46,783 bases of DNA, taken from NCBI GenBank assembly GCA_035289485.1, contig DATDXA010000043.1, forward strand, positions 1 through 46,783. The letters run 5' to 3'. This document shows positions 9,001-15,000 of the stretch, piece after piece (position 1 is the stretch's first letter; each line of letters starts with the position of its first letter). The position numbers were made by a program. This DNA comes from an archaeon (GTDB lineage: Archaea; Iainarchaeota; Iainarchaeia; Iainarchaeales; Iainarchaeaceae).

Positions 9001-12000
9001 CCCTTGCAACAAGGCAGCAGTGGCTTGTGACCCGATAATCGCGAACATGCCGGTGCCCATAACGGAGCACGGCTATCTGTGGAGGCATAACTAGTAGAAA
9101 TCTTGCTTTGCACCATTTTTTATTCCTTGTTCAGCTACTCTACAGTATGCTTGATATCAAATTTGTGCGCGAGAACGCCGATATTATAAAGAAAGATTTG
9201 AAAAAGCGCGGCGACTCTGAAAAAACAAAGTGGCTCTCAGAGCTTTTGGAAATGGATAAAGAGTACCGCTCCGTGCTGCAGGAAGCCGAAGCGCTGAGAA
9301 TGAAGCGCAACCAGATTACTGATGAAATAAATAAACTAATGGCGCAGAAGAAGGATTTCAAGCCGAAGATTGCGGAGGCAAAAAAGCTCCCTGAAAAAAT
9401 AAAAGAGCTCGAGAAAGAATCCGCGCCGCTCAAGGAAAAAATCGATTGGTACTTAATGCGCCTTCCAAATATCCTGCATGATTCCGTTCCTGTAGGAAAG
9501 GACGACTCTGATAATGTGGTTGTTCGAGAATTCGGAAATAAAGTTTCCAATACAAAGCTCGCTCCGCACGGTGAAATCCTTGAAAAGAACGGCTGGGCGG
9601 ATTTCACGCGCGCAACAAAGATTGCAGGTGCCGGGTTCTATTTTCTTAAGGGGCAGTTCGCGCTGCTTGAAATGGCGTTGCTCCGTTTCTCTTTAGATAA
9701 ATTAGTTGAGAAAGGTTACACTCCGATTTCTCCTCCGCTCATGATGAACCGTGCCGCATATGAAGGCGTTACTGACCTGTCTGATTTTGAGAATGTTATG
9801 TACAAAATCGATTCCGAAGACCTCTATTTGGTTGCAACTTCCGAGCACCCGATGGCTGCAATGTATAAGGATGATATTTTCCAGGAAGCGGAGCTTCCAC
9901 TTAAGCTTGCGGGAATTTCCCCCTGCTTTAGGCGCGAAATAGGAAAGCACGGCATAGATACGCGCGGTCTTTTCCGTGTCCACCAGTTCAACAAGGTTGA
10001 GCAGTTCATATACTGCAAACCTGAAGATTCATGGAAAATGCATGAAGAGCTCCTTGCAAACGCAGAAAGCATTTTCAAAGACCTCGGGCTTTCCTACCGC
10101 GTTGTAAATATTTGTACTGGCGATATCGGTACTGTTGCCGCAAAAAAGTATGATTTAGAAGTTTGGATGCCGCGCGAGGAAAAATACCGCGAGGCGGTTT
10201 CATGCAGCAACTGCACCTCATACCAATCAGTGCGCTCCAATATAAAATTCCGCAAAAAGGACGGCTCGAAAGAGTATGTGCACACGCTGAACAGCACAGC
10301 AGTTGCGGCATCAAGGGCGCTGCGCGCAATAGTTGAGACCCATTACGATGGGGAAGTTCTCAAGATTCCAAAGCCGCTGCAGCAGTACCTGAATGGGGCG
10401 AAGGAGATTTCCGCGGAAAAGAAATAATTTACTATTTTATTTCAAAAATTTTAACTTCGTTGCCAGAGTAAGTATACGCATATTTCCTCAACCCCGTTCT
10501 TGTCTTGCTCCACTCAAAAATTCCCCCGTGCAAATTCATGGCATTGTATCCCTGCCGCGCAAGAAAATCCGCTGCGGTCGAACTGCGAGAACCGGTTCTG
10601 CAAAGGCAAATTATCATCTTGTTTTTTGGCAGCTCCGCAAAGCGCCCGGGCAGCTCCGTTAGGTCAATCCATACCATTGGCTCTGCCTTGGTAAAATCCA
10701 CTTCTTCCCTGTGCCGCACATCCAGAAGTACCGCGTCCCCTTTAGAGAGGGCTTTTTCAGCTTCCTGAGAGCTTATCTCCTGCGCCATAACCAAGATGCC
10801 TGTTAGTAAGGTTAAAAAACGTGTTTTAGGCGTATTTCTTATTCTTCTAGCTTCTCTTTGTGAAGTCAGTTCTATCGAGCCCCCAAAGGGGGCGAAGATG
10901 GAACGCTCCCTTCCAAGGAGCAGCTCGGAGGGCCCATAGCTCAGCCTGGTAGAGCAGCGGCCTTTTAAGCCGTGTGTCGAGGGTTCAAATCCCTCTGGGC
11001 TCGCCTTTTTCTTTCTCTTAGAAAGAGAAAGAAAAACGCGACCGAAAAAGAAAGAGAAACGAGAAGCGTTCACTGAAAAGAAAAAGTGTGGTGCGAAATG
11101 CGCCTGCAAAGGCATAAATTCGTGAAAGTTTCATATATGGTGTTTTCATGTCTGTTGGAATCGACGAGCTGATGAAGAGCAGGAAGGACAATCTCGAATA
11201 CTTGAGAAAGAAAGGCATTGAGCCGTTTCCATATTCATTTGCGCCCACACACTATTCCGCTGAACTCAAGGATAAATATGAAAGCAAGCTAAAAGCAGGC
11301 GATCACACAAAAGATAAGGCAATAGTCGCAGGCCGCGTGATGGCAAAGAGAAATTTTGGTAAGCTCTATTTTGTTTCCCTTCAAGACCCAAAAGGCAGGA
11401 TTCAGCTTGTTGTTTCAGAAAGTGATGCCGGTTCCGCAGGCGTTGATTTAGTGGACCACTTGGATGTCGGGGATTTTATTGGAGTTGATGGCTTTGTAAT
11501 GAAGACAAAAAAGGGCGAGCTCTCTGTTGGCGCTAAGAAAATAACATTCCTATCAAAAGCCCTAAATCCCTACCCTGAAAAGTTCCACGGCCTAACAGAT
11601 ATTGAAGTTCGTTACAGAAAAAGGCCGCTTGACCTGATAATGAACCCCGAGGTTAAGGAAGTTTTCCTCAAGAGGGCAAAAGTAGTTTCGCTTGTAAGGG
11701 AGTTTCTTGAAAAGAGCAATTTTCTAGAAGTAGAGATTCCTCTTCTCCAGCCAACTTATGGAGGGGCAAATGCAAGGCCATTCATTACAAAATCGCACGC
11801 GTGGAAATCGGATTTTTATCTTTCAATTTCCCCGGAGCTCTACCTGAAGCGGCTGATTATTGGCGGCTATGAGCGCGTATACACTATTTGCAAGAATTTC
11901 CGGAATGAAGATGTTGACAAAACCCACAACCCGGAATTCACGATGATGGAGTGCTACGCAGCGTATTGGGATTACAATGACATGATGAAGCTAACTGAAG

Positions 12001-15000
12001 ATTTATTCGCGTTCGTTGCAAAGAGTTTGAACGGCACAACAAAAATAACATACGAGGGCAAGCAGATTGATCTCAAAGCCCCGTGGAAGCGCATGACAAT
12101 GAAGCAGGCGCTCAGAGAATTTGCAAAGCTTGATGTCGACAAATTAACGGATGCCGATTTGAAAAAACTCCTAAAAGAACACGAGCTAGAGGCTGACCCG
12201 TTCAAGCGCGGCCTTGCAATTGCCGAGCTCTTCTCGCATTTATGCGAAGAAAAGCTAATCGCGCCAACTTTCATAATAGACCACCCAAAGGAAACAACTC
12301 CGCTATGCAAGCCAAAGCGCGGCGATCCAACACTCATAGAAAGGTTTGAGCCATTCATCAATGGCTGGGAAGTTGCAAACGCTTACTCTGAACTGAACGA
12401 TCCTGAGTTGCAGGAACAATTTTTCAAAGAGCAGGCAGATCAGGGCAGGGCAAAAGGGGAAACGCACCCGCCTGATGATGATTTCATTGATTCGCTGCGC
12501 TACGGAATGCCGCCAACCGGAGGGCTAGGAATTGGAATAGACCGGCTAGTGATGCTTCTCACGAATCAACCTACAATTAAAGATGTCATTTTCTTTCCAC
12601 AAATGAAGCCAGAGAGAAAGCAGCCATCTGGGACTGCAGATGCACTCAAGCCCGAGCTCGAAGCGATAAAGCCCAACAAGACAAAACTTCTTTTCCAAAA
12701 CGACCCTTACCTAAAAGAATCTTCGGCAACAGTTCGCAGTGTTGAAGGCAATGAAGTCTACCTTGACCAGACAATATTTTTCGCGTTCAGCGGCGGTCAG
12801 AAATCCGATAAAGGCGAAATCAACGGAACAAAACTCAAGGGTGTTTTGCTAAAGGGCGACGACATTGCGCATGTTTTCGATTTCGACCCGAAACTCAAGG
12901 CCGGAGATAAGGTCAGACTCAAACTTGACTGGGACAATCGCTTCAGGACAATGCGCCTGCATTCCGCTTCGCATATTGTCGACCATTTTTTGAACAAGGA
13001 AATTAAAACAGGCGGCACTTCGGGTTCTCTAGTTGACGCTGAAAAGGACAGGAGCACATATCTTGTGAGTGAGAAGATTTCACACGAAGCTTTGAAAAAA
13101 GTTGAAGACGCAACAAATAAATTCATGGCGCAAAAGCACGCAATCAATAGGTTTCCGGACAAGGCAAACCCAAATGTTTTGGTCTGGGAGTGCGAGGGGA
13201 TTGTCCAGCACTGTTCCGGAACGCATGTTCGCAACACTTCTGAAATAGGAAAAATCAAATTAAAGCGCGGGGGCAAGGGCGCCGGAAAAGAACTGGTCGA
13301 AACTTACCTTGTGTAATCGGGGTTTTTGTGATGCCAGAATGCCTTGCACTAAACCCGTTAGAAGATTATGCTTCGTGTCCCGCCTGCGGCGGTGAGATGC
13401 GCGAGCAGCACGCGAAGTGGGTTTGCACAAAATGCAGCTACAAGCGCGGGTGCTGCGATTTGATGTGAAGTTCGCACCGGCACTGACGTCTCCTTGCAAA
13501 GTTTAATTGACTCTATTTTTCTTTTTTTAGTATGAAATTGACGCCCGAACTTGCCGAGCTTACTGGAATCTTAATTGGAGACGGTTGTCTTTCAAAGTAT
13601 TTTGCCAATTTCGATAAACGTTGGAGATATGAACTAGCCTTTACAGGGAACAACGACGAATATGATTATTATCGCGATTTTATCCAGCCAGTTTTTAAAA
13701 ATTATTTTAACACAAAAGGAAGGCTTTTCATCCGCAAGGATAATTCAACCAGGTTCCATGTATTGAGTAAGGTTGCTTTTGATTTCTTTGCAGGCATCGG
13801 AATTCCTATTGGCGAAAAAAGTCATTCTGTTTCCATTCCCAGAGAAATAATGTCAACTACTAATTTGCTTGCTCCATGCCTGCGGGGAATTTGGGATACC
13901 GATGGGTCAATTTACCAGCGTTACCCAAAGCAGTACAAAAATCATCCAAAGCACTATTCCCACTTGAAATCAATGCATCTTGCCATGGTGTCAAAATCTG
14001 TTATAGAAGATGTCAAAGAATGCCTAACTAGACTATCTATACAATCTAGTGAAATTACAACAGACGACAGGGGCGCATTCAGGCTCTATATTACCGACCA
14101 ACTAGAAATCGCAAAATATATGGAAAAGGTCGGTTTTAGAAATGTGCATCATTTAAAGCGCATCTTTAGCATGTCGGCGTAAGGTATTTAAAGTTCTCCC
14201 GCGGGAGAATTAGTCATAGCGGGCCCATAGCTCAGGCTGGTAGAGCACTTGATTCTTTTAAGTTATTTTGCTTAGGGAAGGTGCGGCTCTTAAGGTTGTT
14301 TACCGGCTTGAAAGCTTAGGTAGTGATCGGACAGACCAAGGTGTCGTGGGTTCAAATCCCACTGGGCTCGCTTTTTTTCTTGTATGATTTTTGCATACTT
14401 GACACCGGCAGTGAAGTGTCCCCAATTCTTTAAAAATAAAAAATCAGTTTCTTTTGCATGTATTCTGATTCTGAATTAGAATTAGTCGGCGCTATTATTG
14501 GTGATGGCCACATACACAAATCCTCAAAATATTATTTCGGGCTGACTGGAAATAAAATAACTGACCGAGAATATTACTCAAAACTTTCTGTTCTGATTGG
14601 AAAAGTTTGGAATAAACATCCGCGGGTATTTGAGAGTGGCAGGGGTCTACGGATAAGAGTTTATTCAAAGAACATTGTAACTAAATTGACAATGGATTTT
14701 GGGCTTGCCTACAATTCAGATAAGTGTTATAGTGTTGAAATTCCTGAATTTCTTTTAGACGATTATTCAAAAGTAAAACATGTAATCCGAGGAATAGCTG
14801 ATACTGATGGCTCTGTATTCGTTTCAGATAAGAAAGGTTCACCCAATTACCCTTCCTTGGAAATCACCACCGTTTGCAGGCCTCTTGCCGATCAATTAAG
14901 GGAAATTCTATTATGTGCGGGTTTTAGGGTAACAAATATCCGGAAGTATTGGTCTAAGCGTTCAACCACGGATTGCTATAAGGTTTGTTTATATGGCAGA

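Follow-up and report, generated by a model that had tools for sequence, protein, structure and literature searches.

An AlaX-M-type domain fused to the sole lysyl-tRNA synthetase found in a groundwater archaeon, a candidate tRNA-Lys editor apparently kept across an exchange of synthetase class

In a small groundwater archaeon, the only lysyl-tRNA synthetase (LysRS) found carries an intact AlaX tail, and the same tail is present on the class I LysRS of a sister species, which points to an undescribed step of tRNA-Lys error correction. The tail is best explained as a catalytically competent zinc hydrolase of the AlaX-M type, as predicted from its fold and motifs. Two aspects appear to be new: every one of the tail's closest relatives is part of a synthetase fusion, and the tail seems to have been kept at one locus while the attached LysRS changed class. 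No paper was found that describes an AlaX-type domain on LysRS.

The window (the whole stretch of DNA analysed, 46,783 nucleotides) contains a single open frame at 11148..13316 (+) that begins with ATG and encodes 722 amino acids, arranged as a class II LysRS, a linker of ∼18 residues and a full-length domain of AlaX-M fold in which none of the four zinc ligands is missing (Table 1). Pfam placed tRNA_anti-codon (PF01336) at residues 60-133 and tRNA-synt_2 (PF00152) at 152-487 (318 bits), giving the layout of class II LysRS, with an N-terminal OB domain for anticodon binding ahead of a class II D/K/N core. The NCBIfam lysine--tRNA ligase models PRK00484 (647.8 bits, cut-off 468; model positions 2-488 of 488) and TIGR00499 (575.9 bits, cut-off 427.6) both covered residues 7-489. 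The linker had no family match in Pfam or NCBIfam; homology to the tail of a class I enzyme starts within it, at residue 508 (nucleotide 12669; BLASTP against the class I fusion of genome G043), and a close relative (P0003) has a 168-aa stretch with DUF2000 at this position. Positions 11039-13500 were covered by contigs from four runs of four studies, with no differences or indels listed; three of these runs may be the source of the assembly, and in the fourth, not flagged as source, one contig spans 12590-12833 and crosses the linker.

Table 1. Features of the LysRS-AlaX gene and its surroundings (window positions)
Feature	Position	Strand	Evidence or remark
tRNA-Lys(UUU); acceptor stem G2:U71	10930..11005	+	ARAGORN; Rfam tRNA 69 bits
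Class II LysRS body, residues 1-493	11148..12626	+	Pfam; NCBIfam PRK00484 and TIGR00499 above cut-off
OB anticodon-binding domain of LysRS	11325-11546	+	Pfam
Class II catalytic core of LysRS	11601-12608	+	Pfam
Linker, residues 494-511, Pro/Lys/Glu/Ala-rich	12627..12680	+	BLASTP boundary vs G043 class I fusion
AlaX-M-fold domain, residues 512-722; N-terminal beta-barrel subdomain with Gly-rich motif, and editing core	12681..13313	+	2E1B, 9IUW, NF040865
G549-G550-Q551 of Gly-rich motif (SGGQKSDKG)	12792..12800	+	G549 25/25, G550 24/25, Q551 25/25 LysRS-fused domains
HxxxH zinc motif H605-S-A-S-H609	12960..12974	+	aligned with HTGLH of 2E1B
CxxxH zinc motif C689-S-G-T-H693	13212..13226	+	aligned with CGGTH of 2E1B
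Leu716, column of AlaRS-invariant Arg (G-x-x-R-I/V-E motif)	13293..13295	+	alignment column counts
LAGLIDADG_3 endonuclease-like ORF, 216 aa, GC 0.389	13532..14182	+	Pfam 43 bits; context, not part of the enzyme
Intron-containing tRNA, read as tRNA-Lys(CUU), insert ∼76 nt	14221..14370	+	Rfam tRNA 44.5 bits
Second LAGLIDADG_3 endonuclease-like ORF, 210 aa, GC 0.374	14458..15090	+	Pfam 45.3 bits; context

The genome (1.156 Mb in 64 contigs, 90% complete) exceeded the TIGR00499 cut-off at this gene only. In the same 90%-complete assembly, tblastn found no class I LysRS, a class I LysRS body used as query gave no matches at E<=1e-30, and PF01921 gave partial matches only (<=26.9 bits, in frames of 950, 814 and 507 aa). 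The 722-aa protein, the only LysRS found, is predicted on these matches to be the housekeeping enzyme, in agreement with the first-pass annotation, which had called it the only LysRS found in the genome and of bacterial class II type. A second, free AlaX is encoded on another contig (C4) and is 37% identical to the tail, which upholds the earlier view of the fused domain as a separate paralogue. The AlaRS of this genome has an editing core with HTATH and CGGPH but is short (610 aa), lacking the beta-barrel subdomain and C-Ala, and a YbaK-like protein is also encoded. Proofreading of tRNA-Ala would be handled separately here, by the free AlaX and the AlaRS editing core.

The tail matched the 216-aa AlaX-M structure 2E1B end to end (E 3e-32; query 10-221 against chain 3-215) and also aligned with 9IUW (E 3.7e-30) with both metal motifs in register, so that the complete C-terminal AlaX-M-like domain with intact HxxxH and CxxxH described at first pass was recovered. 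Pfam reported tRNA-synt_2c at residues 523-596, at 30.2 bits in the whole protein (cut-off 30.3) and 32.9 bits in the tail alone, and tRNA_SAD at 685-710 (29.8 bits; cut-off 24). The NCBIfam AlaXM model NF040865 aligned over positions 1-230 of 234, scoring 143.2 bits with the whole protein and 148.7 bits with the tail alone, below its equivalog cut-off of 300 bits. The two-subdomain architecture of AlaX-M is thus present along the full alignment, together with the zinc ligands H605, H609, C689 and H693 and the Gly-rich motif. In fold, in HxxxH/CxxxH ligands and in the GGQxxDxG motif the tail resembles AlaX-M (Pyrococcus horikoshii PH0108, 2E1B; 9IUW), but PH0108 is free-standing, whereas this domain is covalently fused to LysRS and forms the C terminus of the 722-aa protein.

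Conservation was counted over 25 non-redundant LysRS-fused domains. H605, H609 and C689 are kept in all 25 and H693 in 23, and S608, D554 and R598 in every copy; the full zinc-ligand set is therefore retained in 23/25, at 35-78% identity to the tail. As in cis-editing enzymes, the predicted hydrolase domain and the synthetase lie in one chain, and purifying selection has kept the catalytic residues among orthologues. Two N-terminal fusions to class I LysRS, P0276 and L105, have lost the CxxxH histidine, and some LysRS-attached AlaX copies are therefore probably not hydrolases. An S608/D634 signature proved to be a trait of the subclade and is not specific to LysRS.

The domains closest to the tail all sit on synthetases: the best 28 long proteins in a profile search comprise 11 class II LysRS, 6 class I LysRS and 11 PheRS-beta. 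The closest free AlaX-M is only 45% identical. On LysRS, the domain was seen at the C terminus of both classes and at the N terminus of class I (P0007, P0276, L105), and some fusions have a B3/4 or DUF2000 domain between the LysRS body and AlaX. The occurrence of the same domain clade on PheRS-beta, and of CtdA-like B3/4 and DUF2000 tails at the same position, had escaped the first pass. At 4 of 71 free AlaX-M loci, AlaX-M and class I LysRS are same-strand neighbours spaced by -13 to +22 nt; AlaX-M also lies beside HisRS at 13 Bathyarchaeia-type loci (in the order SecY-AlaX-HisRS) and 2 Micrarchaeota loci. These HisRS neighbours and the PheRS-beta fusions suggest that proximity to a synthetase is a general habit of the family, which need not mean a partner-specific substrate. 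Among 101 genomes sampled from the order, 4 encode an AlaX-fused LysRS; an earlier count (5 genomes with the fused frame out of 41) was not reproduced genome by genome.

Five related genomes share the gene neighbourhood, with LysRS beside SerRS. The locus runs SerRS, rhodanese, tRNA-Lys(UUU), LysRS, and LysRS lies between SerRS/rhodanese and an Ig-like protein in 4/5, being rearranged in G058. Congeneric genomes differ in the type of LysRS that occupies it: class II with AlaX in G000 and G058, class II with DUF2000 and AlaX in G088, class I with B3/4 and AlaX in G043, and class I with B3/4 in the congeners G079 and G023, which lack the AlaX tail. The 1044-aa "fused frame" noted earlier within the genus proved to be a class I LysRS. 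The tails on the class II host and the class I host of G043 are 72% identical over 214 aa without gaps, from residue 508 (BLASTP), similar to the flanking SerRS (75.5%). In a domain tree, tails from the two LysRS classes are intermingled (clade support 98/98), and AU tests rejected monophyly of the six class II tails (p 0.0036) and likewise of the three class I tails (p 0.011). Because of the 72% identity between class II and class I hosts, the tail appears to have persisted while the catalytic body was swapped; judged from these sequences, it behaves as an evolutionary unit independent of the synthetase fold that would have stayed at the tRNA-Lys/LysRS locus through class I/class II exchange.

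The B3/4 tail of the class I relatives, found at the same C-terminal position on class I LysRS and on one of class II in this family, has CtdA as its closest relative of solved structure (E 6e-33, 9e-32; 9F7E, 9MKL), a standalone canavanyl-tRNA-Arg deacylase whose activity on aminoacyl-tRNA is proven (PMC10018355, in excerpt). This B3/4 tail is absent from the 722-aa protein and is relevant to the locus rather than to the AlaX domain.

The tail departs from most of its family at column 716, which corresponds to E. coli AlaRS R693 by a mapping uncertain by one residue. Arg occupies this column in 124/124 AlaRS, 41/44 AlaX-L, 149/175 free AlaX (<=300 aa) and 13/13 PheRS-beta-fused domains, but in only 4/25 LysRS-fused domains, a loss that had gone unremarked at first pass; the four free AlaX-M genes adjoining class I LysRS retain it. 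E. coli AlaRS R693 has been assigned to the G3:U70 contact, and R693K AlaRS is reported to edit Ser-tRNA-Thr (PMC11260482, in excerpt); we infer that the column-716 Arg, invariant in AlaRS, reads G3:U70. The literature describes AlaX-M as selecting tRNA-Ala by G3:U70 (PMC11295145, in excerpt), and AlaX-M has this Arg in a G-K-E-R-I-E motif, whereas the tail has Leu, so that the residue presumably tied to G3:U70/tRNA-Ala selectivity is missing.

With about even confidence, we read the tail as a tethered post-transfer editor that would clear small wrong amino acids from tRNA-Lys. The LysRS body, by its family membership, would use its OB fold, which binds the anticodon, to pick tRNA-Lys and would then aminoacylate it; should a small non-cognate amino acid be attached (most probably serine, perhaps alanine, threonine or glycine), the tethered AlaX site would take the released 3' end and hydrolyse the ester, and a small pocket would keep Lys-tRNA-Lys out. 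The choice of tRNA would come from tethering to LysRS, not from an AlaX domain devoid of the AlaRS-invariant Arg. Biochemical work has shown class II LysRS to mischarge tRNA-Lys with Ala, Ser and Thr and to be without post-transfer editing, and a G:U wobble in tRNA-Lys to allow mischarging by AlaRS (PMC4173786, in excerpt). In Streptococcus pneumoniae, tRNA-Lys mischarged with Ala, Ser or Thr by LysRS and AlaRS is removed by a separate factor, MurM, which belongs to an unrelated family, has a cell-wall role and is not fused to LysRS (PMC4173786, in excerpt). In the cis-editing AlaRS and ThrRS, a homologous zinc hydrolase likewise sits in the chain of a class II synthetase, the classical post-transfer editing layout; here, by contrast, the host is LysRS, the C-terminal tether is short and flexible, and the same tail also occurs on a class I host. 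The earlier suggestion of proofreading of mischarged tRNA-Lys, or of a recruited editor, gains weight from the recurrence on both LysRS classes and from the class swap, with function and substrate still conjectural.

A general role for the tail as a "third-sieve" Ser-tRNA deacylase, serving in trans whatever tRNA (Ala, Thr, others) had been mischarged with Ser and using LysRS as scaffold or co-expression partner, is less probable, though the strongest of the alternatives. Such a role would fit the change of Arg to Leu, since the eukaryotic AlaX of yeast and human, tRNA-unspecific and Ser-specific, has hydrophobic Leu or Ile at the R693-equivalent site (PMC11260482, in excerpt), and tRNA recognition would be independent of G3:U70 in both; it would also fit the position of AlaX-M genes next to several synthetase genes (HisRS, LysRS, PheRS) and the short AlaRS. 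Eukaryotic AlaX is free-standing and not linked to LysRS. General trans-editing, however, leaves unexplained both the repeated partnership with the two LysRS classes (17 of the best 28) and the retention of the tail through the class swap, in a genome whose free AlaX and YbaK-like protein are already there for trans-editing.

It is improbable that the tail is non-hydrolytic and serves to bind tRNA, with a gain in the binding or aminoacylation of tRNA-Lys. Such a role has been proposed for the apicomplexan TrpRS, in which an AlaX-type domain (AXD) is likewise joined by a linker to a synthetase other than AlaRS or ThrRS and, in Plasmodium, is needed for tRNA binding (PMC3680381, in excerpt), and the histidine losses in two N-terminal class I fusions agree with it. 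The AXD is, however, AlaX-S-like, sits at the N terminus and retains none of the four zinc ligands, in keeping with its reading as a tRNA-binding module (PMC3680381, in excerpt), whereas the LysRS tail has all four; 23/25 LysRS-fused domains keep them along with GGQ, D554 and R598, which would not be expected of a module that only binds.

That the fusion is an artefact of assembly or gene calling, or an accident both recent and neutral, is very improbable: although the source is a metagenome-assembled genome and the fusion is rare in the order, the junction is bridged by contigs from four runs, the same continuous frame recurs in independent assemblies (P0005, P0006, G058, G088, P0003), and the catalytic residues are conserved among relatives at 58-78% overall identity. 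Contrary to the earlier caveat, the fusion is neither recent nor limited to a handful of genomes: AlaX is found with LysRS of either class, at the N or the C terminus or as a neighbouring gene, and survived the class swap.

A transfer of an editing domain to a synthetase of other specificity is also described for bacterial SepRS, which carries a ThrRS-type editing domain (tRNA-Thr-ED; PMC8762117, in excerpt); there, the editing fold and the host enzyme differ from those of LysRS-AlaX, and the editing domain is N-terminal.

The tRNA-Lys(UUU) gene lies 143 nt upstream of the LysRS start, and a tRNA-Lys(UUU) is found just upstream of the LysRS gene in 4/5 relatives checked (G043, G079, G023, G088); the exception is G058, whose tRNA gene is placed elsewhere on the contig. 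In the Rfam alignment of the downstream intron-containing tRNA, 81 nt beginning UU-CUU replace five loop positions, and the acceptor stem is the same as that of tRNA-Lys(UUU). The two endonuclease-like ORFs that adjoin this tRNA are low in G+C against the LysRS gene (0.453-0.458).

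The LysRS gene of the window proved to be a single uninterrupted frame with an ATG start, of which residues 7-489 constitute a full-length class II LysRS, scoring 647.8 bits against the NCBIfam model PRK00484 (cut-off 468) and 575.9 bits against TIGR00499 (cut-off 427.6). After the linker, residues 512-722 matched the 216-aa AlaX-M structure 2E1B end to end (E 3e-32), and also a second such structure, 9IUW (E 3.7e-30). The Gly-rich motif SGGQKSDKG and both metal motifs, H605-SAS-H609 and C689-SGT-H693, were retained, which bears out the complete AlaX-M-like tail described in the first-pass annotation. 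When the tail was compared with the curated AlaXM equivalog model, positions 1-230 of 234 were covered with 143-149 bits (cut-off 300). Judged from these matches, the tail is of AlaX-M fold, yet not an ordinary AlaX-M.

The fusion itself, as first proposed, is real: the region 11039-13500 was covered by contigs from four public runs in four studies (groundwater and soil), and neither differences nor indels were listed. Three of these runs may be the source of the assembly, and the linker was crossed by a contig (12590-12833) from the one run not flagged as source. The source genome, 1.156 Mb in 64 contigs and 90% complete, further encodes a free AlaX, 37% identical to the LysRS tail, and an AlaRS. 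No class I LysRS was found in this 90%-complete genome, and the TIGR00499 cut-off was exceeded at this gene only, in agreement with the earlier claim that it is the sole LysRS.

Of 2136 candidates searched with residues 490-722, 164 proteins matched at E<=1e-3, and the best 16 of those 164, together with one truncated protein, were without exception synthetase fusions (see the table). The best 28 matches of a profile search of long proteins comprised 11 class II LysRS, six class I LysRS, and 11 PheRS-beta fusions, with AlaX-L and AlaRS appearing only at E 3e-42 and weaker. When 1.84 billion representatives were searched exhaustively, 5377 matched at E<=1e-3; the closest free-standing AlaX-M (about 216 aa) was only 45% identical to the LysRS tail. 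An isolate of Planctomycetales has one annotated fusion (P0283), located on a contig of 5.7 Mb, and the cluster of P0008, seen on 67 contigs, is labeled “lysine--tRNA ligase [Candidatus Aenigmarchaeota archaeon].” Public records for such fusions read merely “lysine--tRNA ligase,” an annotation that can now be corrected. No description of a LysRS-AlaX fusion was found in full-text literature searches on AlaX, LysRS, editing domains, and DPANN/CPR. AARS Online places AlaX domains on AlaRS and ThrRS only (PMC11580382), and a 2026 survey of the AlaX family covered standalone proteins only (PMC13149037).

Features of the LysRS-AlaX gene, its locus and its genome, with the domain architectures of relatives (G, genomes of the order, G000 being the source genome; P, related proteins; L, loci; C, contigs of G000)
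Feature	Position or members	Size	Remark
LysRS-AlaX gene (P0001)	11148..13316 (+)	722 aa	
OB anticodon-binding domain	residues 60-133		Pfam
Class II core	residues 152-487		Pfam
Linker	about residues 494-511		short, Pro/Lys/Glu/Ala-rich
Near-perfect palindrome	11006-11036		T/C-rich arm, then A/G-rich; directly after tRNA-Lys(UUU), within 143-nt spacer before LysRS
Two LAGLIDADG_3 endonuclease-like ORFs	13532-15090		GC 0.389 and 0.374; on either side of intron-containing tRNA
Intron-containing tRNA	14221-14370		read as tRNA-Lys(CUU); insert of about 76 nt
AlaRS of G000	C2:1684-3537	610 aa	
Free AlaX of G000	C4:11825-12535		
Family f1, class II+AlaX	G000	722 aa	
Family f1, class II+AlaX	G058	724 aa	
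Family f1, class II+DUF2000+AlaX	G088	873 aa	
Family f1, class I+B3/4+AlaX	G043	1006 aa	
Family f1, class I+B3/4	G079	768 aa	
Family f1, class I+B3/4	G023	781-aa frame	
Class I+B3/4	G096, G069, G039, G005, G049		
Class II+B3/4	G070		
B3/4-tailed LysRS, both classes	L053:8675-9400 (G043), G079, G023, G096, G069, G039, G005, G049, G070		
Class II+unrecognized C-terminal tail	G099 (L139:282-2444), G062 (L140:469-2601)	tail ~220 aa	
Class II LysRS+AlaX	P0005, P0006, P0158, P0177, P0280-P0283		Pfam
Class II LysRS+DUF2000+AlaX	P0002, P0003		Pfam
Class II LysRS+B3/4+AlaX	P0009, P0277		Pfam
Class I LysRS+AlaX	P0008, P0138, P0139, P0278, P0279		Pfam
Class I LysRS+B3/4+AlaX	P0004		Pfam
N-terminal AlaX+class I LysRS	P0007, P0276		Pfam
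PheRS-beta+AlaX	P0010-P0016, P0123, P0164, P0272		Pfam
PheRS-alpha with partial AlaX domain	P0298		Pfam; one case
SecY-AlaX-M-HisRS loci	L067, L070, L071, L076, L077, L079, L085, L088, L094, L095, L108, L109, L127		
AlaX-M protein, Micrarchaeota-labeled	L097:4624-6630	669 aa	C-terminal AlaX-M, ligands intact, Arg kept; N-terminal ~450 aa without Pfam match

AlaX-fused frames were present in four of the 101 sampled genomes of the order, all belonging to f1, the family of the source genome: the source genome itself, G088 and G043 of the same genus, and G058 of a sister genus. Frames of 724-1044 aa had initially been counted together as the fused frame; the one of 1044 aa, in G043, belongs to class I LysRS. 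A single LysRS class per genome was found in all six f1 genomes examined. The order of genes in f1 is conserved (two small genes, SerRS, rhodanese, tRNA-Lys(UUU), LysRS, an Ig-like surface protein, and further common genes), with G058 rearranged and no rhodanese detected at the LysRS locus of G023 or G058. Comparison of the class II protein of G000 with the class I protein of G043 revealed similarity that begins sharply at residue 508 (KPNKTKLLF) and extends over 214 gapless residues at 72% identity, resembling the identity of the adjoining SerRS (75.5%); no match was found between the two upstream of residue 508.

A carefully built tree of 27 AlaX domains (a quick one of 92 rows was also made) united the nine tails of the group, six from class II and three from class I enzymes, in one clade (support 98/98), with the class I tail of G043 nested beside the class II tails of G000, G088, and P0003 (97/93). 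AU tests, for groups chosen after inspection of the tree, rejected a single clade in either case, with p 0.0036 for class II (six tails) and p 0.011 for class I (three tails). The tailed class II bodies (G000, P0003, G088, G058, P0005, and the B3/4-tailed G070) likewise formed one clade (99), situated among plain class II LysRS of ~490-506 aa from the order, two further rows being truncated ORFs. The bodies of G000 and P0003 are 90% identical, with P0003 carrying 168 additional DUF2000-bearing residues exactly at the linker, and the B3/4 tails of G070 (class II) and G079 (class I) share 46% identity over 252 aa. The simplest reading of these relationships would be that the AlaX tail is the stable element and that the catalytic body ahead of it has been exchanged. 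Neither G079 nor G023 showed any vestige of an AlaX tail downstream of its class I gene at E<0.1, and the GC content of body (0.453) and tail (0.458) gave no compositional sign of recent import of the body. To our knowledge, LysRS is the only synthetase existing in both structural classes. The particular value of the window is that LysRS class appears to have been exchanged at one locus within one genus, ahead of an orthologous tail, which would amount to a natural experiment in which an editing module is workable with either approach to the acceptor stem.

Across the 101 genomes, class I LysRS was encoded in 50, class II in 49, and both in two (G018 and G068), the classes being intermixed inside genera in a patchwork distribution. 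Lateral transfer has previously been reported to replace one LysRS class with the other, passing through a stage at which both enzymes are present (PMC1475646). By our own reading of coordinates, tRNA-Lys lies within 1 kb upstream of LysRS on the same strand in 15 genomes (11 class I and four class II); on this gene order, the tRNA-Lys/LysRS slot is old and its occupant changes. The best solved relatives of the B3/4 tails were the CtdA structures 9MKL (6e-33) and 9F7E (9e-32), and not PheRS or PheRS-beta. CtdA is reported to be a canavanyl-tRNA-Arg deacylase (PMC10018355). The match points to the CtdA-like B3/4 tail as another type of editing domain carried by LysRS. For the DUF2000 tail of G088, the PDB gave no sequence match at E<=0.1; we take DUF2000 to be a peptidyl-tRNA-hydrolase-like fold. 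The sole match in the ~220-aa tails of G099 and G062 was a weak one to HD (21.5 bits) in the latter only.

Gene neighborhoods were examined at 80 AlaX-M loci of species-representative genomes, comprising seven LysRS fusions, one PheRS-beta fusion, one 669-aa protein, and 71 free AlaX-M. As kin are not independent, the counts are given without a statistic. Class I LysRS directly adjoins free AlaX-M on the same strand in four of the 71, at a spacing of -13 to +22 nt (L083 Nanohaloarchaea, L111 Micrarchaeota, L126 uncultured archaeon, and L130 Parvarchaeota). The order L30 ... SecY, AlaX-M, HisRS was found at 13 of the 71, labeled mostly Bathyarchaeota or Bathyarchaeia and once Nitrososphaerota, and HisRS adjoins AlaX-M on the opposite strand at two Micrarchaeota loci (L093 and L098). 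An exclusive tie of AlaX-M to LysRS was thus rejected, 15 free loci lying by HisRS and others by MiaB-like, RuBisCO, or tRNA-intron-endonuclease genes.

Residue conservation was assessed in an HMM-aligned non-redundant set that included 25 LysRS-fused domains (10 class I and 15 class II; P0001 numbering). H605, H609, and C689, as well as G549, Q551, D554, and R598, were each present in 25/25, and H693 was present in 23/25. The two exceptions (P0276 and L105:5962-8397), both N-terminal AlaX domains on class I LysRS, have Ala instead (CGGTA and CGGAA), and these copies are probably inactive. The sole LysRS of the source genome has an AlaX-type tail that is real, conserved, and apparently active. 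Such a tail would add lysine to the amino acids proofread after transfer and would mean that additional proofreading is afforded even by very small genomes (here 1.16 Mb); LysRS fusions may also serve as natural templates for modular synthetase engineering. S608 (25/25) and D634 (24/25) were considered as LysRS-specific pocket markers and rejected, because both are found in free Bathyarchaeia AlaX-M adjoining HisRS and so mark a subclade, not a partner.

Arg at alignment column 716 (Leu716 in P0001) was found in 124/124 AlaRS, 41/44 AlaX-L-sized proteins, 149/175 free AlaX of <=300 aa, 13/13 PheRS-beta-fused domains, and all four free AlaX-M next to class I LysRS, compared with 4/25 LysRS-fused domains, in which Leu stood in nine and Lys in five, the other domains without Arg having Ser, Met, a gap, or something else. 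Counting from the CxxxH cysteine places this Arg at the latter position of the “RR” pair in AlaRS. Its invariance in AlaRS is the reason for taking it as the putative equivalent of E. coli R693, an equivalence made uncertain by a one-residue indel relative to AlaX-M. R693 of AlaRS is reported to touch G3:U70, with R693K allowing editing of Ser-tRNA-Thr, and yeast and human AlaX, with Leu or Ile at this site, to be strictly Ser-specific and tRNA-unspecific (PMC11260482); the single-Arg point is likewise made in a review (PMC11295145, section 4.2.2).

LysRS has been described as lacking post-transfer editing and as wrongly attaching Ala, Ser, and Thr to tRNA-Lys; the pneumococcal enzyme is reported to produce Ala-, Thr-, and Ser-tRNA-Lys, and AlaRS to mischarge tRNA-Lys when the acceptor stem has a wobble pair (PMC4173786). 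Beside this background stand the features observed in the sequences, namely anatomy, conservation of the catalytic set, recurrent class-independent association with LysRS, and loss of the Arg. We infer that the 3' end of tRNA-Lys would leave the synthetic site and be captured by the tethered zinc hydrolase, which would strip off a small non-cognate amino acid, Ser being the likeliest; tRNA specificity would come from LysRS, and Lys would be kept out by a small pocket. Class I and class II synthetases reach the acceptor stem from opposite sides. That one tail occurs on both makes a fixed docking geometry unlikely, and release and recapture on a flexible tether would be the more likely mode. The Ser-specific, tRNA-unspecific AlaX of yeast and human is the precedent for a tail that is only a scaffolded general Ser-tRNA deacylase, a reading that we consider unlikely. 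A binding-only appendage, as in Plasmodium TrpRS, is more improbable still: the Plasmodium domain is reported to have lost all four ligands (PMC3680381), whereas the LysRS tails largely keep theirs. An artefactual or neutral fusion, at odds with the contigs across the junction and the conserved catalytic residues, is barely credible.

The nine tRNA-Lys of f1 all carry G1-C72, G2:U71, and G3-C70, and by our own reading so do all 40 that could be read at 30 loci across the order, irrespective of LysRS class. G2:U71 thus has no particular link to the AlaX tail and was rejected as its correlate. According to a review, G2:U71 is required by the class I LysRS of Borrelia and acts as an antideterminant toward the class II LysRS of E. 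coli, and Drosophila mitochondrial AlaRS uses G2:U71 with G3-C70 (PMC9976931). A wider reading, which we regard as doubtful, is that the lysine locus would be a modular cassette of a tRNA-Lys gene, a swappable class I or II body, and a lasting C-terminal proofreading tail (AlaX, CtdA-like B3/4, or DUF2000). AlaX would here remove Ala, Ser, or Gly from tRNA-Lys mischarged by AlaRS as well as by LysRS, as class-independent post-transfer editing, with low-GC homing-endonuclease genes as possible agents of body exchange. The corrected error would then lie in tRNA-Lys itself, the fold of the preceding enzyme being immaterial to the tail, and AlaRS would be a source of mischarged tRNA-Lys because G2:U71 stands next to G3-C70 and such wobble pairs attract AlaRS.

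Fragments of the first LAGLIDADG_3 ORF occur downstream of LysRS in G088, with a weak trace in G079, and these ORFs may be linked to turnover at the LysRS locus. Inspection of the AlaRS of the source genome revealed a short protein that keeps the HTATH and CGGPH editing core and is without the beta-barrel subdomain and C-Ala; the frames of its congeners are 892 aa (G079) and 872 aa (G043). A short AlaRS was rejected as the cause of the fusion, since G043 combines its 872-aa frame with a fused tail. The free AlaX of the source genome, termed “housekeeping” in the first-pass annotation, carries Asp instead of Cys in its CxxxH motif (DGGTH), a substitution shared by 10 of 175 free AlaX.
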